This document shows positions 3,228-37,478 of a stretch of 64,000 bases of DNA, piece after piece. The position numbers and the translations under genes were made by a program. The notes beneath the pieces were generated by a model. It had not been told where the DNA came from. It worked only from the letters and a program-made list of their open reading frames with translations, and made no database searches. Source of the stretch: an uncultured Acidobacteriota bacterium. Its GTDB lineage: Bacteria > Acidobacteriota > Terriglobia > Acidiferrales > UBA7541. The stretch is from contig CAWHXI010000001.1 in the NCBI GenBank assembly GCA_963833345.1, positions 438,025-502,024 of the forward strand. The letters run 5' to 3'. Within the stretch, counting starts at the first letter, position 1. The number at the start of each line of letters is the position of its first letter.

Positions 3228-3860
3228 TTGGGTCGCCCTCGTGTACTGCTCGCTGATGACCATCTCATGCTGGTCGAAGCGCTCAAGAAAGTATTGGAAG
3301 TTGAATATGACGTTGTAGGTTCGGTCGGTGATGGGCTTGCACTTTTGAATGCTGCCGAAAAGCTACGGCCCGACGTCGTCGTACTCGACATTGCCATGCC
3401 CCTCTTGAACGGCCTCGACGCTGGTCGACAGCTGCGACACAATTTTCCCTCCGTAAAACTCGTTTTCCTGACAATGAATGAAGATCCATACCTGGTAGGT
3501 GAGGCTTTTCGCGCCGGAGCTTCCGCGTACTTGCTCAAGCAGGGAGCAGCATTGGAGCTTACCAAGGCAATCTCCGATGTCCTGAAAGGTTTGACCTACG
3601 TAACGCCGTGTATTGCGGGGGGGCTGGCCAACATCTCATTGCTCGACCCCGAAGCTCGTGAGCAAGCCCCCCAACCGACGGCCCGGCAGCGCCAGGTCAT
3701 TCAGCTATTGGCAGAAGGGCGCTCGATGAAGGAGATAGCGGACTTGCTGCACATTACCATGCGGACTGTCGCCTCGCACAAATATCGCGTAATGGAAATC
3801 CTGCAGATCAAGACCAGCGCCGAACTTGTACGCTATGCCGTTAAGCACAGAATCGTTTGA
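3228..3860 (+). CDS. NarL/LuxR-family response regulator (REC + LuxR HTH)
   Basis: Receiver motifs RVLLADDH...DVVVLDIAMPLLNG...FLTM, then LTARQRQVIQLLAEGRSMKEIADLLHITMRTVASHK (LuxR-type HTH). TTG start. Confidence 0.9.
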   Translation: MGRPRVLLADDHLMLVEALKKVLEVEYDVVGSVGDGLALLNAAEKLRPDVVVLDIAMPLLNGLDAGRQLRHNFPSVKLVFLTMNEDPYLVGEAFRAGASAYLLKQGAALELTKAISDVLKGLTYVTPCIAGGLANISLLDPEAREQAPQPTARQRQVIQLLAEGRSMKEIADLLHITMRTVASHKYRVMEILQIKTSAELVRYAVKHRIV

Positions 3861-4056
3861 AACTGTTCATGCACGGCGAGCTGCTTCACACGATAGTTGA
3901 ACTACTCGGCTGTAGTCCGTTTGTCTCCCGCAACCGGTTCTAGCAAGTTCCGCCTTGGGCAAGATCACCGCATCCTCCAAGTGGAGTTTCATGGACGCAA
4001 CACTGTGACCGACTGCAAGAGGCTGTCATTTTTGACAGGTTCGTCTCCCGTCTCCT

Positions 4057-8060: not shown

Positions 8061-8639
8061 TAGCTTTGTTTAATTCCTTGCGGCCAGAGCGTCCCCCGTT
8101 TACTGGTAACGACCGAGTTTAGCTCGCTGTTTGGGAGCGTGGGCTCAGCCTGTCCCCATTATCTGCGCAACTTCCCGGGCTAAGCCCTTTTGAATCATGG
8201 ATCAACGCGCGAGAGTCGTTGAAGTTACTGTAGCCTACCTCTGTTACGCGTCGACGCACACTGTCAAAACTTACAGACTCTTAACCGGCATCTTTTGGGG
8301 GCGTACCCTCAGTCGCGGAAAGCCCGCCACGGCTGCCGGCGGCGATTTATATCGTGGCGGTGAAGTCCCGAAGCGTATATGATTTGCAACATCCGCTGTG
8401 GTTAACGCGTCTCCGGGTTCAGGTGGCGCTTGCATCCTGAAGAAGAACGTCAAAATGCACAAAAACCTCAGCCCCGATTGCACTTGCAGTCCAGCATCAT
8501 CCCCCGTGGGATTGTTCTCCCCAGCCCTGCGGTTTGTCCTGTCATCGCTCTGCCTTGCCATAAGGGTCAACGCCAGCGCGTTACTTCTCTGCTTGGCAGC
8601 GTATTCGTGGCTAGACGCTTTCGCACAGTCGAGGTCCGA

Positions 8640-11600
8640 ATGAGCCCCACCCAGAGTCGCCTGTTGTGGGGCACGCCGAATCTGGATTCCCGGATCTCCA
8701 TAGCCGCACTCGCACTCCTGGTGGCCACAGTATCCTATCTGGCTGCGAAGCTGGCTGGGGCACTAGTCATTACTATCCCCCAAACGGTTTGGCCAATGTG
8801 GCCCGGGTGCGCGATCTTGGTCGCTGTTCTCCTTCTAGTGCCGCGGAAAACCTGGCCTATTCTTCTTCCTGCGGGCCTGGCCGGTTTTGTTCTCTATGAC
8901 TTGCAAGCGGGTGTCCCCCTTCCTTCGATCGTCTGGCTCATTCTCGTCGACACTCTTGAAATTCTCGTCGCTACCTGGGGGGTGAACTTTTTCCTGCATG
9001 GCAAGCCCCGTTTGGACAGCTTGGGAGCCCTTGCAAAGTACTCACTCTGTACTGTGTTTCTTGCTTCGCTCGTCGTTGCATCACTCGGAAGCCTCCGCTT
9101 AACCGGGGACTTCTGGCTCAGCTGGCGGTTTAGCTTTCTTTCGGAGGCGTTGGGCTTTCTCACTATAACACCGGCCATAATCGGTCTGTTCGGATTGCGC
9201 CGACCGTTTATCCGCGTCTCGCGAGTTCATTACCTGGAAGCAGCCATCCTGTTTTCTGTACTGGCTTCCTTGTGCTACCTCGTGTTCATGGCTCCTGGGA
9301 GGAGCGCTCCGCCGGCACTTCTCTATTCTCTCGTCCCATTTCTTATCTGGTCCGCTCTGCGGTTTGGGTCCGAAGGCGTCGGCTCCTCGGCTACCATTGT
9401 TGCCCTGATGTCCATTTGGGGTGCCGTTCACGGACGCGGCCCCTTCACGGAATCTGACCCCATCAACCGCGTGCTATCGTTGCAGCTCTTCTTATTGTGC
9501 ACTTCCATCCCTTTTATGGTTCTCGCTGTCCTCGTCGAAGAGCGCAAGATCGCACAGGTCGAGCTCAGCGAAAGCGAAGAGCGCTTACGTCTGTCTATGG
9601 AATCCGGTAAAGCAGTAGGCTGGGAGTGGGACCTTAAGACCGGAAGAGACTCCTGGTTCGGTGACCTCAAATCTATGTTCGGAATCCCAGCCGAGCATTT
9701 TGTCGGACGTCCAGAAGACTTCCATCGTTACGTTCACCCGGAGGATCGACATTACGTCTCCCAGGCCGTAGCCGAAGCAAGGCTAAGCCATCTGCCTTAC
9801 GATGCGGAGTTCCGCGTTGTTTGGCCCAACGGGAACGTCCGCTGGGTCGCGGCGAAGGGGAATTTTTACTATTCGGAGACTGGCCTACCCGAGCGCATGC
9901 TAGGCATGGCCCTAGATGTTACGGAGCGCAAACTCGCGGAACAGGCCTTGCGCGAGAGTGAGGCAGCCCTCACGGAAGCGCAGCGGCTTGCAAACGTGGG
10001 CAGCTGGCAATGGGATGTGCAAACCGATACGGTCACCTGGTCAGAACAACTCTATCGGATCGCAGGTATTGATCCCTCTCTGCCCGCCGTCAGTTACCAG
10101 GGGCACGCAACCCTCTACACCCACGAAAGCTGGCTCCGCCTTCGGAGCGCGGTCGAGGAAGCGTTGCGTTCGGGAGCCCCCTACGAACTCGATCTTGAGA
10201 TGAATCACTCCGACGGCACTAGAAAATGGATCATCGCCAAGGGTGAAGTACGTCGCGATGGCGCCGGGAACATCGTCAAGCTTCGCGGTACGGTTGATGA
10301 CATTACCGTTCGCAAACGAGCGCAGGAGGAACTTCGCAAGAGCGAGGAGCGGCTGCGTCTCGCAATCCAGGCCGGAAAAATGTTTACCTGCGACTGGGAC
10401 GCGACCACAAATGTATTCACCCACTCGCCAGAAAGCGTCCAGATTCTCGGGGAGGATCAGGCTAGCTCTAGCACCGGCGAACAAATCTTGGACAGCGTAC
10501 ATACAGAAGATCGAGAGGTATTTACGGCCGCGGCTGCTAGCCTCACCCCCGAAAAGCCCGACATTAGGATCAGCTACCGCATGATGCGCTCGGACGGCAC
10601 CGTGATCTGGTTGGAAAGGAATAGTCGCGCGCAGTTTGACCCACAAGGCAGGTTGCTGCGGATAATCGGCATTGTAACGGACATCACGGAGCGCAAACGC
10701 GCGGAAGATGCAGTCCGGCAAAGCGAAGAAAAGTATCGCAGGATCGTGGAGACTACAAATGAGGGAATTTGGCTTCTTGATTCAAACTTTGACACCTCCT
10801 TTGTGAATCGTCAGATGGCGGAGATGCTCGGATACCAACCGGCAGAAATGCTCGGGCGCAGCGTTTTCGATTTTTTCTTTCCCGAGGATGTTGGGCGCAA
10901 GCGGCGAGGTTTGGCGCGCCGTCGGGAAATGCACAGCGAACAATTGGATGATCGGCTCCGTCGAAAGGACGGCGCTGAATTATGGGTACGAATGACAGCC
11001 ATTCCGATCTCCAAGGACAATGGAGATTTTGGCGGCTCTATGGCGATCGTGGCTGACATTTCCAGCCAGAGGCTAGCAGAAATTGCTCTTCGCGAGAGCG
11101 AATCACGCTTTCGCTTGGTGGCCAACACCGCCCCCATGCTAATTTGGATGTCGGATACCTCAAGGTTGTGCACCTATTTCAATCACTCCTGGCTCGCGTT
11201 CACTGGTCGTTCTATGGAGCAGGAGCTCGGAAATGGCTGGACGGAGGGCGTTCACCCCGAGGATTTGCAAAAGTGTTTTGATACTTATGTTCAGGCTTTT
11301 GATGCGCACGAGAAGTTCACGATAGAGTATCGCCTCCAGCGCTACGACGGCGAATATCGCTGGGTTCTGGATCTTGGGGTGCCCAGGTTCAACCAGGATG
11401 GTTCTTTTGCAGGCTACATTGGCTCGTGTGTAGATGTTACCGACCGCAAGCTCGCCGAAGAAGCCCTTTCTGGCGTGAACAGCAAGCTCATTGAGGCCCA
11501 AGAGCGTGAACGCGCCCGCATCTCCAGAGAGCTTCACGACGACATCAGTCAGCGTCTCGCGATGTTGACCATCGAGTTAGAGCAGCTCGGGCAGAAGTTC

Positions 11601-12128
11601 TTCGATTCGCCTCCCGACTTGCTCCACCGAGTTGCTCGATTACGAAACCAAAGCGCTGACATCGCCACCGACGTTCAATCCTTGTCGCACGAGTTGCACT
11701 CCTCAAAACTGGAATACCTCGGCATTACCACGGCCATGCGAGCCTTCTGTCATGAGTTCTCTGACCAGCAGAATGTCGAAGTCGTTTTTGCTCATGATGA
11801 AATCCCGCGCACGCTCCCGCAGGATATTTCACTTTGCCTCTTCCGCGTCTCGCAGGAAGCTCTGCAAAATGCCTTCAAGCATAGCGGTGTCCGGCACTTC
11901 GATGTGGAGCTCCGTTGCGCCTCTGATGCCATCCAACTTACCGTGCGCGATTCGGGATCCGGATTCGACCCCGAAGGGGCGAGCAAAACGCAAGGGCTTG
12001 GTCTCGTCAGCATGGCGGAGCGTGTGAAGCTCGTGGGAGGGCGGCTTTTGATTGACTCGCAGCCCCATCGTGGCACGACAATCCACGCCAAAGTGCCCCT
12101 CAGCAAAGCCGCAAGCGCGTCGGCGTAA
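8640..12128 (+). CDS. sensor histidine kinase: MASE1-like membrane domain, 5 PAS/PAC modules, HisKA_3, HATPase_c
   Basis: ATG 8640 (MSPTQSRLLWG...) is followed by about 8 hydrophobic helices. Five PAS/PAC units each end in D[IV]T/S-x-RK (DVTERK, DITVRK, DITERK, DISSQR, DVTDRK). Then ERERARISRELHDDISQRL (HisKA_3) and GLGLVSMAERV (ATPase G2 box). Confidence 0.9.
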   Translation: MSPTQSRLLWGTPNLDSRISIAALALLVATVSYLAAKLAGALVITIPQTVWPMWPGCAILVAVLLLVPRKTWPILLPAGLAGFVLYDLQAGVPLPSIVWLILVDTLEILVATWGVNFFLHGKPRLDSLGALAKYSLCTVFLASLVVASLGSLRLTGDFWLSWRFSFLSEALGFLTITPAIIGLFGLRRPFIRVSRVHYLEAAILFSVLASLCYLVFMAPGRSAPPALLYSLVPFLIWSALRFGSEGVGSSATIVALMSIWGAVHGRGPFTESDPINRVLSLQLFLLCTSIPFMVLAVLVEERKIAQVELSESEERLRLSMESGKAVGWEWDLKTGRDSWFGDLKSMFGIPAEHFVGRPEDFHRYVHPEDRHYVSQAVAEARLSHLPYDAEFRVVWPNGNVRWVAAKGNFYYSETGLPERMLGMALDVTERKLAEQALRESEAALTEAQRLANVGSWQWDVQTDTVTWSEQLYRIAGIDPSLPAVSYQGHATLYTHESWLRLRSAVEEALRSGAPYELDLEMNHSDGTRKWIIAKGEVRRDGAGNIVKLRGTVDDITVRKRAQEELRKSEERLRLAIQAGKMFTCDWDATTNVFTHSPESVQILGEDQASSSTGEQILDSVHTEDREVFTAAAASLTPEKPDIRISYRMMRSDGTVIWLERNSRAQFDPQGRLLRIIGIVTDITERKRAEDAVRQSEEKYRRIVETTNEGIWLLDSNFDTSFVNRQMAEMLGYQPAEMLGRSVFDFFFPEDVGRKRRGLARRREMHSEQLDDRLRRKDGAELWVRMTAIPISKDNGDFGGSMAIVADISSQRLAEIALRESESRFRLVANTAPMLIWMSDTSRLCTYFNHSWLAFTGRSMEQELGNGWTEGVHPEDLQKCFDTYVQAFDAHEKFTIEYRLQRYDGEYRWVLDLGVPRFNQDGSFAGYIGSCVDVTDRKLAEEALSGVNSKLIEAQERERARISRELHDDISQRLAMLTIELEQLGQKFFDSPPDLLHRVARLRNQSADIATDVQSLSHELHSSKLEYLGITTAMRAFCHEFSDQQNVEVVFAHDEIPRTLPQDISLCLFRVSQEALQNAFKHSGVRHFDVELRCASDAIQLTVRDSGSGFDPEGASKTQGLGLVSMAERVKLVGGRLLIDSQPHRGTTIHAKVPLSKAASASA

Positions 12129-12307
12129 TAGCGCAGTCCGCCCCCAAACGGAGTCCTGTCTCTCTCTCGCCAGCCCGCTCTTTTCCGCGGCCGCCTCTGG
12201 TTTGACTGTCACTTTTGCCGCTTTACTTCACAAGACCGCTCGGCTATCGTCTGTCGAGAGAACAGGGTCATACCTGATTGTGTACGGGATATTCTGGTTG
12301 AGACCTT

Positions 12308-12508
12308 ATGCCCTGCAAGAAATGCGGGTCGGATCACCTGACGGAGTATGGCTCAGAGATTAATGTGCACTCTCTCGGAACCAGCGACCTGGACAAGCAA
12401 GCTGTCTTGCTGTTCCCGAAACTCTTGGTCTGCCTAAAGTGCGGTTTTACGGAGTTTACCATCTCGGAGCGCGATTTGCCCCTCCTTTCAAAGCGCGCAG
12501 AGCAATGA
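12308..12508 (+). CDS. small 4-Cys zinc-ribbon-like protein (66 aa), paralog of 14999..15229
   Basis: MPCKKCGS...LFPKLLVCLKCGFTEF: CxxC...CxxC. Aligns without gaps to the 14999 ORF. Confidence 0.6.
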   Translation: MPCKKCGSDHLTEYGSEINVHSLGTSDLDKQAVLLFPKLLVCLKCGFTEFTISERDLPLLSKRAEQ

Positions 12509-12609
12509 GCTTCAGCTGGCTTAGGTCGGCTTTTCAACTGCATAGCTAACTGAGTGCTCTTCAAAAACACGATATAAAATGTAGCTCTCCTCGTCGCCGT
12601 GCGAACTAC

Positions 12610-12909
12610 TCAAGTGCGACTAACATACTGTTCGCCCGTAAGGACAGCTTCCACAGCCGCGAGCAGGTCGGTGCCAGCTCGAGTTTTCACAACATAACCC
12701 AGTGCCCCCAAGCTGAGCGCCTCTTGCACTACATCCTCGGAGGATTCTTGGGTCAGAAAAATTATTTTGGCGCTTGGAACGATCTTGCGGATTTGCCGGC
12801 CAGCCTCAATTCCATTCAAACCGGGGAGACCGATGTCGAGCAGAATCAGATCGGGGTTAAGTTCTTTGGCCTTCTGGACGGCGGCTAACCCGTCTGAAAG
12901 TTCGCACAC
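12610..12909 (-). CDS. response regulator receiver protein (REC only); N-terminus disrupted or without a canonical start
   Basis: DLILLDIGLPGLNG...IIFLTQ...GALGYVVK. The beta1/acidic-pocket segment RIRVLVVEDFEPF is encoded in frame upstream (to 13029), but no ATG/GTG/TTG is available there (see finding). Confidence 0.75.
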   Translation of the reverse strand: MCELSDGLAAVQKAKELNPDLILLDIGLPGLNGIEAGRQIRKIVPSAKIIFLTQESSEDVVQEALSLGALGYVVKTRAGTDLLAAVEAVLTGEQYVSRT

Positions 12910-13147
12910 TACTTCCAGCTCCGGCTTTTGCTTGAGCGCCGTGCAAACGAAAGACCGAAAAGGTTCAAAATCCTCTACTACCAGGACTCGTATGCGCGAT
13001 GTTGTCAGGGGGCCCCATTTCTGAAGAGGTCACATCACGAACTGTGGGGGACGCGACAATACTAGTCGAACTTCTTCCTCAAGCGCAACTCATTCGTTTT
13101 CTGTTAATTCGTTTCAAAGCATTCAAGCAGATTCTTACGTGCTAGCC

Positions 13148-14599
13148 TCACTCCAAGCTGATCGGCACGTAGATCAATCTGCCCTCCCGCTGGATTTGCA
13201 GCACAAAAGGGACTCCCGGTGGGCAAGCTTTCAATGCTGAGCGCAAGCGCTCTAAGGTAGTCATAGGCTGGGTGTTCAAACTGCGGATCACATCCCCCGG
13301 CGCAAGAGGGACGTCCCCTAGGGATCCCGTCACCCGCGCGGTCACAACAATGCCAAACGGATCTCTCAATCCCCGCAACATAGCAGCGGTCTTCTTGTCG
13401 ATTTCCACACCCACTATGCCTAGCGGTGAAATCAGATTCTTTTGAGGGTCCGCAAGCGAGATGAGCTGATCCACATCTTGGCCTTCCTCAACCGTCCCCA
13501 CGCTGAAAACTTGTTTCGCTGTTCCTCTGAGAACGGTGACTTGCACCTTGTCTGCTGAATCCCGCAGGAGGAAAAAATAGTTCACACTCGGCAGGTTGTC
13601 GGCAGGCTGCCCATCGATCGACACCAGTATATCGCCAACCATCAAGCCCGCTGCTTCCGCAGGACCCCCAGGAAGCACGTCCGAAATGATGACCCCATAT
13701 TCCTGTTTCAATCCAAGTCCCACAGCAATGGACGGCGTGATGGTTTGGATTCCAATACCAATCTCTTGCCTGCGCAGGTGTCCGAACTGCTTCAGCTGCC
13801 GGTACACCGTTCTGACCGTTGCCGAAGGGATGGCAAAACCCAACCCCTCGTTCCCACCCGATTGCGAAAGGATGAATGTGTTTACGCCAACGACCTCTCC
13901 ATTTAAGTTTACAAGCGGACCGCCCGAGTTCCCCGGGTTGATCGGTGCGTCGGTTTGGATGTAGATCAGCGGCGAATCAGGGTCGAGTTGCCTTGCCACC
14001 GCCGAGATCAACCCATGAGTGATGGAATTTCTTAGCCCTTCGGGGCTGCCAAAAGCAAAAACAGTATGGCCTTGCCTCACCTCCCGGTAGGACGCTAGCG
14101 GCAGTGCCGGAAGTTTTGTGTTTTCAATTTTTAGCAGCGCGAGGTCCTTCTCACGCGCCACTCCGATGAGTCGAGCCGGGACGGTATCGATCCTTCCCGA
14201 AAGGGCAGTCGCCAGCGAACCGTCCGTGTTTGGGGGTGGAAGGACGACCTCGATGCGCTGCGCTCCGTTCACCACATGCGCGTTCGTTATGATGTAGCCT
14301 TCCGCATCGATGACGAACCCCGAACCGCTGGCGCGTTGCCGTCCAATCACGGCCCCCGCATTCCCCCGGCTGCTATCCTCGAGGGGCGCATAGGCCGTCA
14401 CGATGATCTGGACGACGCTCGGCGAAACCTTTTTGATCAGCGCATCCACCATCGAGTCAAATTGGCTGGCGGATTTTGCCGTGGAAGGTGCTTGGGCGAG
14501 GGCTTGGAACGCGAATCCGAACAGCACACACTGTACCAAAATGGCGCGGCAGCCGAGCCTCTTGGCAAACCGAACGCGATGAAAGCCGACTTCAGGCAT
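13148..14599 (-). CDS. HtrA/DegP/DegQ-family periplasmic serine protease (trypsin-like domain + 2 PDZ)
   Basis: GSGFVIDAEGYIITNAHVV (His), D in REKDLALLKI, GNSGGPLVNLNGEVVGVNT (Ser). Two PDZ-like segments follow. ATG at 14599 is preceded by AAGGAG; the ORF track extends to 14665. Confidence 0.9.
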   Translation of the reverse strand: MPEVGFHRVRFAKRLGCRAILVQCVLFGFAFQALAQAPSTAKSASQFDSMVDALIKKVSPSVVQIIVTAYAPLEDSSRGNAGAVIGRQRASGSGFVIDAEGYIITNAHVVNGAQRIEVVLPPPNTDGSLATALSGRIDTVPARLIGVAREKDLALLKIENTKLPALPLASYREVRQGHTVFAFGSPEGLRNSITHGLISAVARQLDPDSPLIYIQTDAPINPGNSGGPLVNLNGEVVGVNTFILSQSGGNEGLGFAIPSATVRTVYRQLKQFGHLRRQEIGIGIQTITPSIAVGLGLKQEYGVIISDVLPGGPAEAAGLMVGDILVSIDGQPADNLPSVNYFFLLRDSADKVQVTVLRGTAKQVFSVGTVEEGQDVDQLISLADPQKNLISPLGIVGVEIDKKTAAMLRGLRDPFGIVVTARVTGSLGDVPLAPGDVIRSLNTQPMTTLERLRSALKACPPGVPFVLQIQREGRLIYVPISLE

Positions 14600-14998
14600 T
14601 CGACACGCTCCTTTTCCTGGGTCGCCCGATTCGAGAGCCGCTCGATCTTCTGAGCGCTTGGCCACAGGTTTACCCTGTCGGTTCGCGCAGCTCTCCCCGA
14701 GCGTTGGCAGCTTATGACTGCCTACTTAGCTCAGTACACTGGCAAAACTACCGCGTCGCTTTAGCGCTACCCTTGCGCCAGAAGCTAGAGTCGGACTACC
14801 GCCACCCAGGAGCGCGCGCCCCGGGCGTCGCCACTTACAATCCGGTTGCTGCGTCAATCTGCGCCTTGGGGAGAAAAGCCCGCACTAAAATGTGCAATGT
14901 TGGACAGTCAGACCAGATTCTGATTATCTACACTCGCCTCCTAGAGTCTCCAGGTTTGTGTCCACTGGCACGGACCATCAGGAAGTGTGGGAGGGTTT

Positions 14999-15229
14999 AT
15001 GTCTTGTCTGGCATGCGAGTCGGCTAATCAGGTTGAATTCTCTGCTGAGATAATCCTCCATTTCGCGGCGCTCCAAACCTTGGATATTCCACGTGTCGAG
15101 CTATTCCCCAAGCTTTTAGTCTGCTTGGATTGCGGCTTTAGCCGTTTTAACGTCTCACCACTCGAATTGGCGTCGCTTGCCACTGGTACTCAGAGAGCGG
15201 AACGGTTCACGAGGCAGGCGCATCCATAA
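14999..15229 (+). CDS. small 4-Cys zinc-ribbon-like protein (76 aa), paralog of 12308..12508
   Basis: ATG 14999 is preceded by GGGAGGG. MSCLACES...LFPKLLVCLDCGFSRF. The N-terminus aligns exactly with the paralog when this ATG is used. Confidence 0.6.
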   Translation: MSCLACESANQVEFSAEIILHFAALQTLDIPRVELFPKLLVCLDCGFSRFNVSPLELASLATGTQRAERFTRQAHP

Positions 15230-15332
15230 ACCACACTCTTCAGCAGTCCCTCATCAGTCACGAACACTCTTTTGAATCCTTCTAGTTGAATCACTGCCAA
15301 GTATCATTGATAAAAGTATTAAAAGTGGAGGA

Positions 15333-18300
15333 GTGATGCGCTCACTCGGGGTGTGGTCTGTCCTGGCGGTCTCTCTCTTTTACAGCGGCAGCGGAGCCAT
15401 TGCTGCCGCGCAAGACGCTCCCAGTCCGTTGATAGTGGAAGAAGACAAGATGCGCTTCCGCTTGCTTCCTCATACTGTTCTCGAATTGCCTGTCGTTAAT
15501 TCCACCAATAAACCCGTCTCTGGAAAGTTCAAGCTGTCGTTGCTCAACTACGAGGACGACTCGGTTGCCGCCGCGATGTCAGGAACGTTTGTCGAGTCAC
15601 CGGGCGAAACCGTAGAGAAGATCGATTGGCCAGTCGCACATTTGCCGAGCGACACGCCAACCGAACTCGGCTGGTATCGCCTGCAATACAGCTTTGAGCC
15701 AGAAACCGAGTCTGGCGTACCAGCGGCCAGCGGAATCGTCCAGCTTGGTAAAATCATTACCGACGGGTTCGGAATAACCATCGCTGCGGCAACGAAAGTC
15801 GCGCCCGGCAGCAAGTATCCTGTACGCCTCCATGTAGAAAACCCATCGACGCACCAGCCCTATGCGAATAGTCCCATCGAGCTCGTGCTAGAGTTCGGCG
15901 ACAACGAAGATACTGACGTTAAGCGCAAGATCAAAACCGATGCGGCAGGCAATGCTACCGCTGCCTTTGACCTGCCGCAGAATCCTTCGGATCAACGCGG
16001 AGAGGTCACTGCCACAGTGGCCCGCGGTCCATACAGCGAAGAAGCCAAGCTCGAGTTTGAATTCCCGGATAAGCCCGCTCCGGCACTAACCGTCACAACT
16101 GATAAGCCGCTCTACCAGCCTGGCCAAACCGTTCATGTACGTCTTTTTGCCATCGATTCGGACAGGCACGCCATGGCCGGCGCGAAGTTAGACGTGGAAA
16201 TTGACGATGAAGCTGGCGGCGAACAGTTCCATGAAAAACTGACCACTTCTCGCTTTGGCATTGCTTCGGCGGATTGGGAAATCCCAAAAAAGCTGCAACT
16301 TGGCAATTCCACTATAGTCGCCCAATTTGACCGTTCGGAAGCCGACTACTGGAGTCAACGCCGCACCGAAATCCGCATTAGCCGCTATGAGTTGCCAACT
16401 TTCACCGTCAGCGTCGACCCCGACCATACGTATTATCTCCCCGGCAGCAATGCTGTCGTGGATGTGCATGCGGATTATCTTTTTGACAGGCCTGTGCAAC
16501 ACGGCAAAGTAAGAATCGTACAGCAGGAGAACCGGCACTGGGATTATGCAACGCAGAAATGGGAAGTCGACGAATCGGCGCCCGTCGAAGGTGAACTCGG
16601 GAGCGATGGCCATTTCAAAGGCACGATCAACCTTGCCGACGAATTCAAAAGTTTCAAGGAAGGCGATTCCGATCGATTCGAAGATCTTACTCTGGCGGCG
16701 TATTTGACGGACTCCTCAACCGGCCGCACCGAGCAGCGAAGGTTCAAAATCCGCATAACCGCCCAGCCCATTCACCTGTACGTTCTCGAGTCGGCCACCG
16801 CGCACCGCAATCAGCCTTCTGTTTTCTATGTCACCAGTTCGTACGCCGATGGAACCCCTGTCTCGGCAAAGGGGAAGATATTCGCTGCGCAACCCACCAA
16901 TGACGAGAATTCTCAGAACGGCTTTGACCTCAGCCGCCGCAGGCAAATTGGCAGTTTCCGTACGAATCGCTTTGGCGTCGGCCGCGTGGAAGTTTCTCCC
17001 TTTCTGGAAGAGGATCTTCGCATCCCAACGTGGTACCCCCATCGGCACAATTATCAATATGGCTACGATGAAGCGTCCACTAATGAACCCACCGAGCGTA
17101 CTGCATGGCTCGTACTAGAAGCTCTCGATTCCAAAGGATTAAGCGGTGAGTACGATCAGCAACTTTCCGTCGCAACCAATGATGAATTCCTCCGCGTCCA
17201 GACTGATCAAACTCTATATCACCCCGGAGATTCGATCCTTGTCACGCTGAATTCCAACTCGAAAAATAGAGATGCAGTGTTGAGTGTTTGGGGCGAGAAA
17301 GGACTCCTGTCCTCCCAGCTCGTGCCTTTGGTCCGCGGCCACGCCACCGCAACGGTTGAATTCGATCCGCGCTTCCTCGGAAGTGTTTTTCTGACGGCCT
17401 CCAGCCTGGTTCCTTCCGGCGATCAGCAAACGGCGCTCTACGGATGGACGCAAGTCCTCTACCCGGCCCGCAAAGAGCTAGAAGTAAAGGTAAAGATGCC
17501 GCAAACCACTTTCAAACCCGGTGAGCAAGTTTCCGCCGACGTCCGCGTTCTGACTCCGGAAGGCCATTCGACGGAAAGCGCCCTGGGACTTCTGGTCTTC
17601 GATCGTGCTGTGGCGGAACGCGTTCGAACCGACGAGGATTTCGGACGCGATTATGGCTACTCCATCTTTGATTACTTTGGCTGGGAATATCAACGCAGTA
17701 TTGGTGGCATCAGTCATCGCGACTTGCTTGATTTGGACGCGACCAAGCCATTTCCCGAAGGGCTGGACCTCGTTGCCGAGGGCATGATGCGCACGGGTTC
17801 TGGTCCATGGATGGCCGTCGAATCACTGGAGGGCGGGGGATGGGACGCGCTCGGCGCGTCCGGCACTTTTTCGAAATGGATGCAGATCATGCTCCAACCG
17901 GTCAGAAAAGCTTTGAATGACTGGTACTCCGCGAACGGTGAATACCCAAGCGATGAAACCGGCGTGCGCGCGGCGCTACAGTCGAAAGGTATTGATACCG
18001 ATCAGATCCGCGATCCCTGGGGCAATCCTTTTCTCGTTAAATCTTTTTTTAAGGGCGCGGACCATGTCGTGAACCTCCTCAGCAGCGGTGTGGATAAGAA
18101 GCCCGGCACCAGCGATGACTTCGTCGTCGCCACTTTTCACTGGCCCTACTTTCGTAAAATTGGAATGCAAATCGACCACGCGTCCGCCCAATATTTCTCA
18201 GCGACCGGGAAATATATCCGCGACTATGACACTCTGAAAGAGGAAATGAGAGAGCAGGGAATCGATCTGGATACTCTCCGCGATCCGTGGGGCCACGCGT

Positions 18301-18971
18301 ATTCCTTCACTTTCGATATTTCGGGTCCATATTTCCGAATCTCGGCTGATAGCGCTGGTCCGGACGGCATCTTCAACAGCAAAGCCAAAGCATCGTGGGA
18401 CGACGTCGAAGTCTGGATGTCCAGCATCCACTATTTTATGGCCGAGAACGCCGCACTGAATACTGCCATCGCTGAAAACTTCAAAGCCACTGGATCTTTT
18501 CCCCAGAACGAAGAGCAGCTCAAACCGATTCTCGCCATGGCGAAGTTGGACCCCGAGCGCCTTCTCGATCCTTGGGGCCATCCCTATCACTTTACATTTA
18601 GCGCCCAAAGCCGTTACGCCGACCGGCTCACTGTTCGCGACGTCCGCGCTTATTCCGATCCCGCACAAAGCAAGAAAGTGACAGAAGACATTCCGGTAAC
18701 CCAACAGGTCGCCTACCTCAGCGTGCTTAGCAATGGTCCGCAGAACGATCCGAATCAGGCCTTTTCCGTCACCGAATTCAGCCGCGTAGTTGCTGAACAA
18801 ACGAGCAAGGACAAGGCGCCTGTTGCCACCGGAAATCAAAAACCGCTCGCAGGCAACACCGGCGGCATCTACGGTGTGATCACCGACCCGTCCGGCGCAG
18901 CCATTACCAATGCGGAGGTCACCGCAGTTTCCGTTGACACAGGACAAGTCTTTACAACTCAAGCCGACTAG
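15333..18971 (+). CDS. alpha-2-macroglobulin-like secreted protein, N-terminal part (MG domains + 3 GspG-like modules), ending at an in-frame TAG
   Basis: Signal peptide. MG-type motifs: TTDKPLYQPGQTVHVRL, QTDQTLYHPGDSILVTL, TTFKPGEQVSADVRVL. Three DPWG pseudopilin-like repeats. Ends inside a CarboxypepD_reg domain. Confidence 0.85.
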   Translation: MMRSLGVWSVLAVSLFYSGSGAIAAAQDAPSPLIVEEDKMRFRLLPHTVLELPVVNSTNKPVSGKFKLSLLNYEDDSVAAAMSGTFVESPGETVEKIDWPVAHLPSDTPTELGWYRLQYSFEPETESGVPAASGIVQLGKIITDGFGITIAAATKVAPGSKYPVRLHVENPSTHQPYANSPIELVLEFGDNEDTDVKRKIKTDAAGNATAAFDLPQNPSDQRGEVTATVARGPYSEEAKLEFEFPDKPAPALTVTTDKPLYQPGQTVHVRLFAIDSDRHAMAGAKLDVEIDDEAGGEQFHEKLTTSRFGIASADWEIPKKLQLGNSTIVAQFDRSEADYWSQRRTEIRISRYELPTFTVSVDPDHTYYLPGSNAVVDVHADYLFDRPVQHGKVRIVQQENRHWDYATQKWEVDESAPVEGELGSDGHFKGTINLADEFKSFKEGDSDRFEDLTLAAYLTDSSTGRTEQRRFKIRITAQPIHLYVLESATAHRNQPSVFYVTSSYADGTPVSAKGKIFAAQPTNDENSQNGFDLSRRRQIGSFRTNRFGVGRVEVSPFLEEDLRIPTWYPHRHNYQYGYDEASTNEPTERTAWLVLEALDSKGLSGEYDQQLSVATNDEFLRVQTDQTLYHPGDSILVTLNSNSKNRDAVLSVWGEKGLLSSQLVPLVRGHATATVEFDPRFLGSVFLTASSLVPSGDQQTALYGWTQVLYPARKELEVKVKMPQTTFKPGEQVSADVRVLTPEGHSTESALGLLVFDRAVAERVRTDEDFGRDYGYSIFDYFGWEYQRSIGGISHRDLLDLDATKPFPEGLDLVAEGMMRTGSGPWMAVESLEGGGWDALGASGTFSKWMQIMLQPVRKALNDWYSANGEYPSDETGVRAALQSKGIDTDQIRDPWGNPFLVKSFFKGADHVVNLLSSGVDKKPGTSDDFVVATFHWPYFRKIGMQIDHASAQYFSATGKYIRDYDTLKEEMREQGIDLDTLRDPWGHAYSFTFDISGPYFRISADSAGPDGIFNSKAKASWDDVEVWMSSIHYFMAENAALNTAIAENFKATGSFPQNEEQLKPILAMAKLDPERLLDPWGHPYHFTFSAQSRYADRLTVRDVRAYSDPAQSKKVTEDIPVTQQVAYLSVLSNGPQNDPNQAFSVTEFSRVVAEQTSKDKAPVATGNQKPLAGNTGGIYGVITDPSGAAITNAEVTAVSVDTGQVFTTQAD

Positions 18972-18986
18972 GCGGGAGCCTACGCC

Positions 18987-21431
18987 TTGCTGAATCTGCC
19001 CGCAGGCTTCTACCAAGTCGAGTGCACTTCGAAGGGATTTAACCGCAGCATCGTGCAGCGCGTGCCGGTTGAAATGGGTTTTTCGACAAAGGTCGATCTC
19101 ACACTCAATGTAGGCGCTGTATCGGAGAGCGTAGAAGTCACCGCAAACGCAGCTACAGTTCAAACCCAGTCCGCCCAAGTGACTGCCGTTTCCAACCAAA
19201 TAGCTTCCACCGCACAGAAAAAGCCGCTCTTCACTCCGCGCCTGCGCAAATATTTTCCGGAAACGTTGCTCTGGCGGCCCGAAGTCATCACCGATGAACG
19301 CGGCCATGCCCACATCGACTTCCCCATGGCCGACAATATCACCGCCTGGAAAATGTCTGTGCTTGCCTCCACCGAAGCTGGTCAGGTCGGCATCGCGGAA
19401 AAAGAGCTGCGCAGTTTTCAGCCTTTTTTCCTGGAAAACGATCCGCCAAAGGTTCTGACCGAAGGTGACCAAATCAGTTTGCCAATCGTCCTGCGCAACT
19501 ACACCGCCGTTCCGCAAACGGTCTTCACGGAAATGCAGCCGGCGCAGTGGTTCACGATTCTGTCGGCGCCAAAGCTAAGCCTCACCGTCCCTCCGAACGG
19601 CGACGCCACATCCGTATTCACCTTCCGCGCGGATCGCAGCGAGAGAAACGCCAAGCAGCGCGTGACCGCAAGAAATAGCGCGGCTGGCGACGCCGTCGAA
19701 CGCGAACTGGTTGTTCATCCAGACGGGCAGGAAATTTCATTCACCTCGAGCCGCATTCTTGCGGGCGATCATAATTCTATCGATGTGCAAGTACCCGATA
19801 CCGCCATCTCCGGCTCGATAGACGCCGAACTCCGCATCTATCCGAACTTGCTAGCTCACGTTTTGGACGCCATGCACGGAATTGGCAAGCTTCCCACCGG
19901 TTGCGCCGAGCAAATCACCTCCACGTCCTATGTAAGTCTGATGGCGCTCCAACTCCTCCAGAAAAGCGCACCAGATAAACAGGACACTTTGAATCCGCGT
20001 GCCGCGCTTGCAGCAGAAGCCCGGGCCGCAGTCCAGGAAGGTTACGACCAACTGGCAGGATTGCAGAATTCGGACGGCGGTTTTATCTACTGGAAAGGCA
20101 TGCCATCCAATGTCGCTCTGACCGCCTATGTTTTGCGCTTCTTGAATTTGGCAGGAGACTTCATCGAAGTCGATGGAGCGATCCGCCGAAGGGCGCGCGA
20201 TTATTTGGTCGCACGCCAGGCCAAGTCAGGCGCCTGGACTTCTTATCGCTGGGATCTTCAAAAAGAAAAAGAAGAGGACGATCCCAACCTGACCGCCTAT
20301 GTCGCGCGTGCCTTGGCCGGCATGAAAATTGATCCGGCCGCCAAAGATCCTGAAAAGCAAAAGCAAGCTCAGACCTCGTTGAAATCCGCCCTGGACTTCC
20401 TTGAAGCGCGCATCGATTCCTGGAGCGACCCGTATCTCGCCGGAAACTATGCAATTGCCGCAGTCGAAAGTGCACGCCCGGAGCATATCGAAAACGCCGA
20501 ATCAGTTCTGCGCCGCCTCGCCCATCGCGAAGGCGATGCGACTTACTGGAACCTCGAGGCCAATACATCACCATTCTACGGTTGGGGACTTGCCGGCCGA
20601 CTGGAGACCACCGCACTCGCGGTGAAGGCTCTTTCCGAATTGCAGACCAAGCGTCCTGAGCAAGATGTTCCAGATATGATCAGCCGCGGACTCCAATATC
20701 TCCTGACCCACAAAGATCGATACGCGATGTGGTACTCAACGCAAGCCACACAAAACGTGTTGGAGGCCATGATCGCGGCACTTCCTCCAGCCGCCGAGGG
20801 CGCCGCAGCGTCCGAGGCCGTGCTAAAAATCGATGACCGCGTGCTGCGTTCTGTGGCCCTGCCAAACCCACAAGATGTCGTCGGCCCGGTGACAATTCCA
20901 CTGGCCAACGATTTGACGAAAGGCACGAACAAAATCGAATTCGCTCGATCTGGCAGTGCAGGGGCGATGAATGCCTCGGTAGTCACAAGCTATTACATCC
21001 CGTGGACCGAGTCCGAAGCCATCGCCAAGGAGGCTTTCAAGACGGGCGAGAATCGCGCCCTGCGATTCAAAGTCCTCTACGATCGCAACGAACTTCGATT
21101 GGGAGACACAGTCCGTTGCACCGTCGAAGCCGAGCGCGTCGGATTTCGCGGCTACGGCATGATGCAGGCGGAGGTGGGACTTCCCCCCGGTGCCGAGGTA
21201 GATCGCTCCTCGCTGGAGAACGCCGAATCCTCTCCTGGAGTCTTTGGCTATGAAATTCAGCCCGACAGAGTGGTTTTCTATTTGTGGCCCACCGCTGGGG
21301 GAACAACTTTCGCTTTCGACTTCCGCATGCGATATCGCATCGCAGCAATGACCGCGCCCGCTGTTGTCTACGACTACTACAACCCTGAGGCAAACGCCAC
21401 CGTCGCGCCGGTGCGTTTCACGGTTCGCTAA
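18987..21431 (+). CDS. alpha-2-macroglobulin-like protein, C-terminal part (A2M core, thioester domain, receptor-like domain); same frame as 15333..18971
   Basis: RKYFPETLLWRPEVITDERGHA...DNITAWKMSVLA (A2M core). Thioester motif GCAEQ at 19899..19913. No RBS of its own. Contiguous in frame with the upstream ORF across TAG 18969..18971. Confidence 0.85.
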   Translation: MLNLPAGFYQVECTSKGFNRSIVQRVPVEMGFSTKVDLTLNVGAVSESVEVTANAATVQTQSAQVTAVSNQIASTAQKKPLFTPRLRKYFPETLLWRPEVITDERGHAHIDFPMADNITAWKMSVLASTEAGQVGIAEKELRSFQPFFLENDPPKVLTEGDQISLPIVLRNYTAVPQTVFTEMQPAQWFTILSAPKLSLTVPPNGDATSVFTFRADRSERNAKQRVTARNSAAGDAVERELVVHPDGQEISFTSSRILAGDHNSIDVQVPDTAISGSIDAELRIYPNLLAHVLDAMHGIGKLPTGCAEQITSTSYVSLMALQLLQKSAPDKQDTLNPRAALAAEARAAVQEGYDQLAGLQNSDGGFIYWKGMPSNVALTAYVLRFLNLAGDFIEVDGAIRRRARDYLVARQAKSGAWTSYRWDLQKEKEEDDPNLTAYVARALAGMKIDPAAKDPEKQKQAQTSLKSALDFLEARIDSWSDPYLAGNYAIAAVESARPEHIENAESVLRRLAHREGDATYWNLEANTSPFYGWGLAGRLETTALAVKALSELQTKRPEQDVPDMISRGLQYLLTHKDRYAMWYSTQATQNVLEAMIAALPPAAEGAAASEAVLKIDDRVLRSVALPNPQDVVGPVTIPLANDLTKGTNKIEFARSGSAGAMNASVVTSYYIPWTESEAIAKEAFKTGENRALRFKVLYDRNELRLGDTVRCTVEAERVGFRGYGMMQAEVGLPPGAEVDRSSLENAESSPGVFGYEIQPDRVVFYLWPTAGGTTFAFDFRMRYRIAAMTAPAVVYDYYNPEANATVAPVRFTVR

Positions 21432-22440: not shown

Positions 22441-22956
22441 TCAAATATCCAGTTTGGCCTTGCGAATGGAGCATCTACCAATGTCGCCAGCATGGGAGAT
22501 CTTGTGCCTTTCCTCGCGGACAGCACGTATAAAGCTCAGCTCGATATCGGTAGGACACCACGGGCTCCGAATCACATCAAATGCTCCGCGGCGCGTCGCA
22601 TCCATGTAGAGTTCCCATTCTCCGTTTCGCGTAAGTACGACAATCGGTGGTGTAATTCCGCCCGGAAGTTTCAATTCTAAAAGGTCCGCATAACCGCCGT
22701 CGGGCAGGCGCTCATCGCAGAAGATGAGACTTGGGCTTTGAAGCAAAAGTACTTGTTCGGTTTGGGCCAACGTGGAGCAGGGGATTACGTTAACGGAAAG
22801 GGCTTCCAGAATATTGCTAACTGTTCGCCGGCTCTCTAAATTGGCCGAGACGACCAAAATGGTAAGTTCGTCCTGCAACCCAGACTCGTAAGTTGTTGAT
22901 ATCTCAAAACGATGGGCTGCATTCTCTCGCATCGAGGGGTTCATTTTGACATTCAC
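22441..22956 (-). CDS. atypical (pseudo-)receiver domain protein
   Basis: REC-like layout ILVVSANLESR...LIFCDERLPDG...VVLTRNG...DVIRSP. The N-terminal acidic pair is replaced by S-A and the conserved Lys by Arg. Divergent from the poly-HAMP kinase. Confidence 0.55.
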   Translation of the reverse strand: MNVKMNPSMRENAAHRFEISTTYESGLQDELTILVVSANLESRRTVSNILEALSVNVIPCSTLAQTEQVLLLQSPSLIFCDERLPDGGYADLLELKLPGGITPPIVVLTRNGEWELYMDATRRGAFDVIRSPWCPTDIELSFIRAVREERHKISHAGDIGRCSIRKAKLDI

Positions 22957-36318: not shown

Positions 36319-36515
36319 CATAGACGGCCAAATATTTTGAAGACCGAGACGATTCGCCAAAGGGACAAGTCGAATGTTTAAGAAGAATCAACCGATGAAG
36401 AGAGAACTTTTGCGCAGCCTGTCATTTCTGACAGTTACCCCTCCGTACCTTACGGCCTACCATTCCTCCTTCCACAATGGACAGCTCGGAAAGGCGTAGA
36501 GCGGGAGAGTAATCC

Positions 36516-37478
36516 TTGCCCACTAATAAAGGGTTCCTGGCAATGGCGGTATTTCTGCTATCAGCTATGCCGCTGCTTGCGCAAGATACACCCATCGGCC
36601 CGGAGGGAACTCAGGTGGCCACGCAGGCAACGCCAGCGGCCGCGGCGAATACCGATGCCTTGAGAAACGCGGCGCAAAATCCGGTGGCCAGCCTCATCAG
36701 CGTTCCTTTGCAGGAAAACTTCAACTTCAACATCGGGCCGTCCGACCGCACCCAGAATGTTCTGAACATCCAGCCGGTAGTGCCGTTCAGCGTGTCGAAA
36801 GACTGGAACCTGGTCGTCCGCTGGATTATGCCGGTCGCCTATCAACCAATTCCCGTGGCGCAGGTATCCGGACCTCCGGCCCAAACCACCGGAGTCTATG
36901 GATTAGGAGACATGAATCCTTCGTTTTTTCTGGTCCCGAAAAAGAGCAAGATAATCTGGGGCATCGGTCCGACGATGGTATTGCCAACGGCAACCAATAC
37001 GACTTATTTGGGGCAGGGGAAACTCAGCATGGGGCCGTCGGTGGTGGTGCTGGTGCAGCCGCCACATTGGACGATCGGGGCTCTTGCAAACAACGTCTGG
37101 TCTGTGGCCGGTCATTCCAACCGCGATAAACCTGCCGTGAACCAGTTCCTCCTCCAGTGGTTCGTCAACTACAACATGAAGAAAGGCTGGTATCTCACCA
37201 CCTCGCCGATCGTCACGGCCAACTGGAGGGGAAGCGACAGCAACGTGTGGACGGTACCGTTTGGCGGAGGAGTAGGAAGGATTATGAAGCTCGGGTTCCA
37301 ACCGGTGAACATCACCGCGCAGTTCTATGGCAACGCCGTCCATCCGCCGGGAGCTTCGCCGTGGGGTTTGCGGTTACAATTTGTGCTGCTGTTTCCCAAG
37401 CTAAGCAAGGAGCAGGAGAAGGCCTTGCTGGAGCAAAAATTGAAACAGATGAATCAGCCGGCGCCGCAACAGCATTGA
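36516..37478 (+). CDS. outer-membrane beta-barrel channel (MetA-pathway/transporter-like family)
   Basis: Signal peptide AMAVFLLSAMPLLAQ. NPVASLISVPLQENFNFNIGP...VLNIQPVVPF...GLGDMNPSFFL...WTVPFGGGVGRI are typical of this OMP family. Confidence 0.6.
   Translation: MPTNKGFLAMAVFLLSAMPLLAQDTPIGPEGTQVATQATPAAAANTDALRNAAQNPVASLISVPLQENFNFNIGPSDRTQNVLNIQPVVPFSVSKDWNLVVRWIMPVAYQPIPVAQVSGPPAQTTGVYGLGDMNPSFFLVPKKSKIIWGIGPTMVLPTATNTTYLGQGKLSMGPSVVVLVQPPHWTIGALANNVWSVAGHSNRDKPAVNQFLLQWFVNYNMKKGWYLTTSPIVTANWRGSDSNVWTVPFGGGVGRIMKLGFQPVNITAQFYGNAVHPPGASPWGLRLQFVLLFPKLSKEQEKALLEQKLKQMNQPAPQQH

Follow-up and report, generated by a model that had tools for sequence, protein, structure and literature searches.

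The 64-kb stretch of DNA analysed here (referred to as the window), from an uncultured Acidobacteriota bacterium, encodes two four-cysteine micro-proteins, mp1 (12308-12508) and mp2 (14999-15229). The conserved genetic unit around proteins of this kind is a convergent pair in which the gene for a micro-protein meets the gene for a response-regulator receiver domain (REC) tail to tail, often with a gene for a Crp-like regulator or for a HisKA_3 histidine kinase immediately upstream. The micro-proteins are members of a real, large, unmodelled and lineage-specific family of the Terriglobia/Acidobacteriota. Loci from related DNA are labelled L001 and so on, and proteins P0052 and so on. The two micro-protein genes of the window are as follows.

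12308..12508, + strand: mp1, 66 amino acids from an ATG start; canonical family member, 3' of the kinase gene and convergent with the receiver gene
14999..15229, + strand: mp2, 76-amino-acid paralogue; no adjoining receiver gene, divergent from the HtrA gene and upstream of the A2M-like gene

A first-pass annotation of the window had proposed both open reading frames (ORFs) and their paralogy, and both were borne out at these coordinates: the ungapped alignment has 24 identities in the first 50 residues, including C3, C6, C42, C45 and the LFPKLLVCLxCGF block, and BLASTP of mp1 against mp2 gives 43% identity with an E value of 3e-17, far past chance. The ATG of mp2 is preceded by a Shine-Dalgarno-like GGGAGGG; the mechanically called ORF opens at a GTG at 14987, and the family alignment favours the ATG. 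The family hidden Markov model (HMM) finds exactly two copies within the window, and neither it nor tblastn finds a third there. Each of mp1 and mp2 is nearer to copies in other genomes than to its counterpart, which makes them an old pair and not the product of a recent duplication in place around a functional unit. A 99.95%-identical strain (L007; ENA contig, 784 kb) has the same gene arrangement and an exact copy of mp2 (P0052).

A large micro-protein family in the Terriglobia

Neither mp1 nor mp2 has a significant match to any family in Pfam-A, NCBIfam or PADLOC. At E ≤ 10 only sub-threshold zinc-ribbon models of Pfam match the micro-proteins, and a sequence-profile search of the PDB returned one chance match, to CasX (E 1.4). 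Homologues, for which a search had been suggested in the first-pass annotation, are abundant, and the family is conserved in the Terriglobia. Single-sequence searches gave 51 homologues for mp1, nearly all of 66 amino acids, and 90 for mp2; the family profile found 1223 at E ≤ 1e-5, and an exhaustive HMMER search gave 1633 clusters (50% identity) at E ≤ 1e-3 and 1037 at E ≤ 1e-10. The members are all short, at roughly 60-190 amino acids. Full-text searches of the literature gave no description of such a micro-protein family.

The family core reads M-x-C-x2-C...E...H...FPKLLVCLDCGF, and the fuller signature from an alignment of 37 members is M-x-C-x2-C-x-S ... E-[IV]-x-[IV]-H-F-x-G-L-K-N-L-D-K-P-x-V-x-x-F-P-K-L-L-V-C-L-D-C-G-F-[ST]-x-F ... 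E-L-x-L-L. Residues C42, C45, F36, G46, F47 and L57 are invariant in this alignment, and at least 90% of its members have C3, C6, E17 and H21. All four cysteines are invariant across 28 full-length pairs of micro-protein and receiver that were aligned jointly, and the two CxxC knuckles are thus conserved. A subfamily of about 115 amino acids (P0043, P0049, P0316, P0338, P0325, P0336 and P0362; metagenome proteins) carries a conserved C-terminal extension, ...W-S-x-D-L-S-E-F-x-A-G-L-P-F-S-S-G-E-I-E-T-x-E-C-A-A-D-x-P-L-A-L-K-N-G-F-Y-R.

For the study of genomic context, one genome of each GTDB species was scanned with a peptide pattern, which yielded 76 loci from ∼53 genomes with 95 copies of the gene. 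All but one of these loci (75 of 76) lie on metagenome-assembled genomes (MAGs) of Acidobacteriota/Terriglobia (Acidoferrum, Sulfotelmatobacter, Acidobacteriaceae and others); the remaining one (L044, DATKNR010000096.1) comes from a MAG labelled 'Patescibacteria group', in which its 55-kb contig is probably mis-binned. Several loci may occur in one genome: at least six were counted in one MAG, the four loci of another contain seven copies between them, and at 17 loci a stretch of 12 kb contains two or three copies. Fusions were limited to tandem doubles of the zinc-ribbon domain (P0055, P0288, P0289 and P0290). An apparent fusion of a PAS domain to a micro-protein (P0254) was set aside, as it appears to be a gene-calling artefact that joins a truncated PAS fragment to a micro-protein whose M-S-C-R-S-C start is normal.

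Coupling of the micro-protein to a receiver gene

Receiver genes were detected on stop-to-stop ORFs around the 95 copies. A convergent REC gene lies within 300 bp of 59 of them (62%), placed tail to tail with a median gap of 16 bp and with 14 of the pairs overlapping; the spacing is typically 0-60 bp. Counting any orientation, 69 of the 95 copies have a REC gene within 300 bp. REC is found in 5% of those ORFs in these loci that are not adjacent to a micro-protein gene; against this background the binomial P is ∼5e-51. Pfam scans of the immediate neighbours give the same picture: 47 of 87 downstream neighbours contain Response_reg, 11 of these together with MEDS, while the 87 upstream neighbours include 13 with Response_reg, eight with HisKA_3/HATPase and four with a cNMP-binding domain and HTH_Crp. 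The coupling to HisKA_3 kinases and Crp-like regulators is looser than that to the receiver; HisKA_3 kinases occur in 18 of the 76 loci. The earlier proposal that the micro-proteins are linked to two-component signalling is supported.

Two immediate upstream contexts recur, a PAS-HisKA_3 kinase (nine cases) and a Crp-like regulator (six). In a third the micro-protein gene ends an operon of histidine kinase, GerE-type response regulator, REC and micro-protein, which is then met by the convergent receiver (L065-L067 and L075/L005). The same pairing is seen on independent metagenome contigs (L005/L006, L090 and L091/L092).

The partner receiver takes one of two forms, REC alone (∼135-190 amino acids) or REC-MEDS (∼345 amino acids), the latter a receiver with an inactive KaiC-like domain. 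REC-MEDS partners are found at L011 (6205-7263), L016 (6217-7275), L063, L066, L069, L040, L022, L019 and L012; the L011 and L016 loci are orthologous to the kinase-mp1 cassette of the window. The window and L001 have REC only, and the lineage of the window seems to have lost the MEDS domain. The partner receivers belong to one NarL-class subfamily, with 47-76% identity to the receiver of the window over the fused alignment, and the acidic pocket, phospho-acceptor aspartate and lysine (D101, D146 and K196 in the alignment numbering) are invariant in 28 of them.

When each micro-protein is matched to its closest relative, the receiver paired with that relative ranks among the three closest receivers in 24 of 55 pairs (about three expected), which indicates that micro-protein and receiver are inherited or duplicated as a unit. 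The convergent pair is retained even though both proteins have diverged to ∼45% pairwise distance.

The kinase-mp1-receiver cassette of the window

The gene order that the first-pass annotation described around mp1 and mp2 was confirmed by Pfam for the kinase, receiver, HtrA and A2M-like neighbours. The elements that accompany mp1 are as follows.

8640..12128 (start at 8430 or 8640), + strand: MASE1-PAS(x5)-HisKA_3-HATPase histidine kinase (Pfam), upstream of mp1 with a 179-bp gap
12206..12221, no strand assigned: palindrome-like site CTGTCACTTTTGCCGC, a degenerate CTGTCA-N4-TGACAG with three mismatches, ∼94 nt upstream of the mp1 start
12610..13008, - strand: stand-alone NarL/VraR-class receiver of 132 amino acids (Pfam Response_reg, E 5e-25), convergent partner of mp1

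The order of kinase, mp1 and convergent REC is kept in L001-L004 (mp1 78% identical) and in L009, L010, L011 and L016 (mp1 ∼65% identical). The same kinase architecture stands upstream of the mp1 orthologues of L001, L009, L010, L011 and L016, with a constant gap of 166-185 bp. The best PDB matches of the receiver are the receivers of CheY, VraR and NarL, and its sequence (VVED, LLDIGLP, FLTQ and GYVVK) has the acidic pocket, phospho-acceptor aspartate, conserved Thr/Ser and lysine of a phosphorylatable receiver. The 101-bp gap between mp1 and REC folds no better than shuffled sequences (z 0.33); there is no Rfam match in 11900-15500, and no convincing terminator or promoter.

The receiver gene has an unusual start. 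No ATG, GTG or TTG lies between the in-frame upstream stop (13032-13030) and the receiver fold, and the same anomaly is present in the L001, L011 and L016 orthologues. A frameshift or sequencing error was rejected as its cause, since the anomaly recurs in the different sequence of those three loci. Five of six receiver orthologues have a conserved GAA[A/T]TGG[G/A]GC block followed 4 nt on by an in-frame CTG (13008-13006 in the window). The block is probably a GGAG/GGGG Shine-Dalgarno sequence, and the conserved ATG/TTG within it is out of frame and meets a stop after ∼16 codons. The receiver thus likely starts at the non-canonical CTG at 13008-13006, the alternative being a +1 frameshift. Public gene calls shorten the receiver to 99 amino acids in L007 and L085 and to 60 in L001, and they miss the partner receiver wholly in L005.

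A copy of the palindrome CTGTCA-N4-TGACAG precedes the mp1 orthologues by ∼92-100 nt; L009, L010 and L001 have it without a mismatch, and L011 and L016 with one or two. The window has nine matches (at most two mismatches) against 2.0 expected, a number reached in none of 100 shuffles. Sites at 1322-1337, 2791-2806, 4023-4038, 8261-8276, 12206-12221 and 36419-36434 were noted, and palindromes stand upstream of the genes for the GerE-type response regulator (3228-3860), the sulfatase and the MASE1-PAS kinase and of an ORF at 36516. The motif looks like an operator of some regulator. It was rejected as a family-wide operator, being only ∼2.6-fold enriched upstream of family members.

Contrasting constraint on mp1 and mp2

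Comparison of mp1 with its L001 orthologue gives 15/7/32 substitutions at the three codon positions and a ratio of nonsynonymous to synonymous substitution rates (dN/dS) of 0.10; the ratio against L009 is 0.08. These values indicate strong purifying selection on mp1. For mp2 the ratio is 0.85 against L085 (2647-2877) and 0.55 against L093 (573-803), and HtrA has a dN/dS of 0.19 in the same genome pair as the mp2 comparison, so that the mp2 protein evolves much faster. The L093 orthologue of mp2 has lost the near-invariant residues E17 and H21 to replacement. Such fast evolution is consistent with an orphan copy that is decaying or neofunctionalizing. In the reading favoured here mp1 would be the functional, cassette-embedded copy and mp2 a younger orphan duplicate under relaxed constraint.

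These results bear on a reading in which the arrangement is historical: an ancestral cassette was copied within the Terriglobia, its genes are functionally unrelated and mp2 is a decaying, pseudogene-like remnant. The many paralogues per genome, the clusters of two or three copies per 12 kb, the convergent orientation (unusual for functional partners) and the fast evolution of mp2, with its loss of E17 and H21 in L093, would all fit hitch-hiking of this kind. It does not account for the retention of the arrangement across ∼45% pairwise distance, for the strong purifying selection on mp1-type copies or for the occurrence of the pairing in three upstream contexts (kinase, Crp-like regulator and HK-RR-REC operon), and we regard it as improbable.

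HtrA and the A2M-like gene are local neighbours

Two further genes adjoin the micro-proteins in the window.

13148..14665, - strand: HtrA/DegP-type serine protease (Pfam Trypsin_2 and two PDZ domains); neighbour outside the conserved unit
15336..21431, + strand: A2M-like gene (Pfam MG2, A2M_BRD, A2M, TED and A2M_recep); neighbour only

From these genes the first-pass annotation had drawn an envelope-proteolysis surveillance module in which HtrA, the A2M-like protein, the kinase-receiver pair and the micro-proteins act together, the micro-proteins regulating the protease, the kinase or a sigma factor, and it had suggested examining gene neighbourhoods for co-occurrence. We used phmmer with the window's own HtrA and A2M sequences to search 6 kb either side of the family members in the 76 loci, with the window and L001 as positive controls, both of which were detected. 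HtrA was found within 6 kb of a family member in none of the 76 loci and A2M in one; the conserved partner is the receiver.

The adjacency breaks down with distance from the window. HtrA adjoins the mp1 cassette only in L001-L004, while L009-L016 keep kinase, mp1 and REC without HtrA. The L001 locus keeps kinase, mp1, REC and HtrA and has neither mp2 nor A2M. Orthologues of mp2 occur only in close relatives; one relative with 88% identity in mp2 has the same context (REC < HtrA < > mp2 > A2M), and the adjacency of HtrA to mp2 extends down to 71% mp2 identity, with that of A2M being seen only at 88% or above. The position of mp2 beside HtrA and A2M is a local, recent and lineage-specific accident of gene order.

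In favour of the surveillance module, the genes do adjoin one another in the window and its closest relatives, and the divergent HtrA-mp2 arrangement with its 333-bp intergenic region persists at 71% mp2 identity. We considered whether this region is a special element and rejected the idea: it looked highly conserved in a four-way alignment, but its 78% is below the 83-92% of the flanking coding DNA. Inspection of the micro-proteins revealed no signal peptide or membrane segment, which suggests that they are cytoplasmic rather than envelope components.

The anti-sigma role that had been suggested for the micro-proteins fares no better. They lack the H-x3-C-x2-C motif of zinc-binding anti-sigma (ZAS) factors, the sole conserved histidine (H21) lying 20 residues before C42, and no sigma factor gene, of the extracytoplasmic-function (ECF) type or otherwise, adjoins mp1 or mp2. 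Family members seldom have a sigma factor as neighbour: among the 87 downstream neighbours Sigma70_r4_2 occurs in four and Sigma70_r2 in two, and no sigma domain is among the top families of upstream neighbours. Overall, the surveillance module is largely refuted as a conserved unit, and we consider it very improbable.

The A2M-like gene has features of its own. An in-frame TAG at 18969-18971 is TAT (Tyr) in L007, which has a single gene of 2031 amino acids; the TAG reflects a nonsense mutation peculiar to the strain, or else an error in sequencing. A match to the type II secretion pseudopilin G domain (Pfam T2SSG, E 1e-9) covers residues ∼850-1090 of the protein encoded by 15333-18971. This region contains three DPWG[NH]-x-[FY] repeats and is inserted after the bait-region domain, and a CarboxypepD_reg-like segment precedes the A2M domain, which is unusual for a bacterial macroglobulin. 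Further along, the ORF at 22441-22956 (- strand) encodes a degenerate receiver-like protein (ILVVSAN / LIFCDERLPDG) in which the usual acidic pair is missing; in L007 this ORF is followed by a protein of more than 1900 amino acids with many HAMP repeats.

Predicted fold of the micro-proteins

The AlphaFold2 model of mp1, built on the family alignment, has a mean predicted local distance difference test score (pLDDT) of 85 and consists of a β-rich zinc-ribbon core followed by one C-terminal helix (strands 11-15, 18-20, 33-35, 38-42 and 48-50; helix 57-65), with a β-hairpin and a three-stranded sheet around the predicted metal site. A Foldseek search of the PDB gave no significant match. The best was the toxin-binding N-terminal zinc domain of MqsA (PDB entry 3ga8; E 0.076, template-modelling score 0.43) and the next were TFIIS-type ribbons, the best zinc-ribbon matches spanning E values of 0.08-0.5. 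The first-pass description of four-cysteine, zinc-ribbon-like paralogues thus stands as regards the paralogy and the CxxC pairs; the ribbon fold is a prediction, and motif and fold together suggest that the micro-proteins bind zinc. A histidine phosphotransfer (Hpt) protein was considered and rejected, as the predicted structure is β-rich with a single helix and no four-helix bundle, and H21 lies just after a strand near the zinc site.

The resemblance to MqsA raises the reading that the micro-proteins share ancestry with its N-terminal zinc domain and act as toxin-binding or antitoxin-like modules. Apart from its place at the head of the Foldseek list, this has in its favour that both CxxC pairs are in register. 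Homology to MqsA/YgiT was rejected: hhalign of the family alignment against the Escherichia coli MqsA sequence gave a probability of 4.3%, and there is no match in Pfam, NCBIfam or PADLOC. Of the traits of YgiT/MqsA, a C-terminal Xre-type helix-turn-helix (HTH) is absent from the best 120-150 family members, which have no fused domain, and no MqsR-type toxin gene adjoins, the neighbours being receivers, kinases and Crp-like regulators. The likeness to MqsA would be at most a weak resemblance of fold, and an antitoxin role is scarcely credible.

A different reading takes the micro-proteins as nucleic-acid-binding zinc ribbons that regulate transcription or translation of the convergent receiver gene or of other targets. 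Some JGI records of homologues are annotated as 'predicted nucleic-acid-binding Zn-ribbon protein', the sub-threshold Pfam matches include Zn_ribbon_13, TFIIB and TFIIS, and Foldseek also points to a TFIIS ribbon. The Pfam matches all fall below the family thresholds, however, and the conserved core has a mean net charge of -1.25, which is slightly acidic and atypical for nucleic-acid binders. No HTH or other DNA-binding domain is fused to a micro-protein in the best 120-150 family members. Binding to nucleic acid is in our view unlikely.

The micro-proteins could also be stand-alone stress sensors or holdases (thiol/zinc switches, like Ruc of Mycobacterium tuberculosis) that are merely co-regulated with the receiver. 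A zinc site of four cysteines with a variable and probably disordered tail behind it would suit such a function, and a redox-regulated zinc-ribbon chaperone of similar size has been described (PMC7448276). This reading leaves the presence of one specific convergent receiver subfamily at 62% of copies unexplained, and the micro-proteins have no sequence similarity to any characterized chaperone; we think it quite improbable.

Proposed role

The explanation that we favour is that the micro-protein is a receiver-coupled accessory of a branched HisKA_3 two-component pathway, a proposal that we regard as evenly balanced between right and wrong. Gene context suggests that the micro-protein may physically bind the receiver. 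The micro-protein would be a small protein-binding module that docks on the neighbouring receiver, acting either as the effector or partner of the receiver in the style of a partner switch, or as a modulator of receiver phosphorylation in the style of a connector. The acidic core, the lack of DNA-binding fusions, the tandem doubles and the likeness to the MqsA N-terminal domain fit a protein-binding module, possibly with a dimeric partner. The relaxed constraint on mp2, which has no receiver, was also counted for receiver coupling. The almost abutting convergent genes leave little room for separate terminators, which suggests overlapping transcripts; their expression might, speculatively, be mutually antagonistic.

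A bolder form of the proposal treats the convergent pair as an unrecognized mode of two-component output that has been amplified to many copies per genome in the Terriglobia. Here a NarL-class receiver, stand-alone or fused to MEDS, would have a free zinc ribbon as its effector, which it would bind or release according to its phosphorylation state, with the convergent genes forming a toggle and weak or CTG starts keeping the receiver sub-stoichiometric. We put this forward as doubtful.

Several points weigh against receiver coupling. For about a quarter of the copies no receiver lies within 300 bp, and for 16 of the 95 the fetched locus contains none. The mirror-tree test gave a Mantel r of 0.16, ∼1.9 standard deviations above permutations, so that deep co-evolution is weak and only the concordance among near neighbours is clear. 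As a rule, functional partners are encoded in one direction within operons and do not converge, and the adjacency could reflect co-regulation or duplication of the cassette without physical interaction. The loci were collected by one exact peptide pattern, FPKLLVCLxC, and divergent members are therefore under-sampled; the neighbouring genes come from a simple greedy ORF method followed by a Pfam scan, and are thus non-standard gene calls.

Stand-alone receiver domains are among the commonest and least understood response regulators, and their outputs depend on protein partners. A family of more than 1,000 clusters with no Pfam, NCBIfam or PADLOC model, from a dominant but poorly studied soil lineage, the Terriglobia, is here tied genomically to one receiver subfamily that includes the enigmatic REC-MEDS proteins. 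Were the micro-protein the partner of the receiver, the pair would provide a directly testable handle on orphan-receiver signalling through two small soluble proteins, and would represent a new type of small-protein component in two-component systems. The analysis also puts right an appealing but unsupported account in which HtrA and the A2M-like gene were tied to the signalling unit. What is new is an unmodelled family and, as we infer from a strong genomic signal, a variant small-protein accessory of two-component systems.

Comparison with known systems

The REC-MEDS architecture of the partner gene in many loci is the same as one known from a census of archaeal two-component systems, in which MEDS (iKaiC) is listed among response-regulator outputs as both REC-MEDS and MEDS-REC (PMC5847659). 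That census covers archaea only and mentions no zinc-ribbon gene, and the partner in the window is REC only.

The zinc ribbons of Pfam (Zn_ribbon_13/DUF2082, A2L_zn_ribbon and TFIIB/TFIIS) share the two CxxC knuckles with the micro-proteins, single members of which match at sub-threshold E values of 0.009-0.3. None reaches the gathering score of any family, and the 35-residue insert with E-I-x-[IV]-H-F and L-D-K-P is specific to the micro-protein family. The MqsA N-terminal domain (YgiT-type zinc finger; PDB entries 3ga8 and 3gn5) has a similar length of ∼65 residues, with a CxxC at positions 3-6 and a second ∼35 residues on; the two enclose a small β-sheet, and in MqsA itself this domain is a protein-binding module. 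The FPKLLVCLDCGF block, E17 and H21 of the micro-proteins are absent from MqsA, whereas the C-terminal HTH and the MqsR toxin neighbour of MqsA are absent from the micro-proteins.

A precedent for the docking of a four-cysteine zinc module on a stand-alone receiver is the N-terminal zinc-binding domain of ClpX with the single-domain receivers CpdR and RssB. It differs from the micro-proteins in cysteine spacing and fold class and in being part of a large ATPase, and the PDB profile search gave no similarity between them.

By analogy, small-protein accessories of two-component systems would be functionally closest. Single-domain or atypical receivers need a protein partner for output, and PmrD, SafA, MzrA and NepR, the last of which belongs to the PhyR partner switch, work by binding to a receiver or kinase and not as catalysts. 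To our knowledge, none of these is a four-cysteine zinc ribbon and none is related to the micro-proteins in sequence or fold. The micro-proteins resemble these connectors in being very small and in being encoded with or near two-component genes, and differ from them in belonging to a family that is restricted to the Terriglobia, massively paralogous and convergent to its presumed partner.

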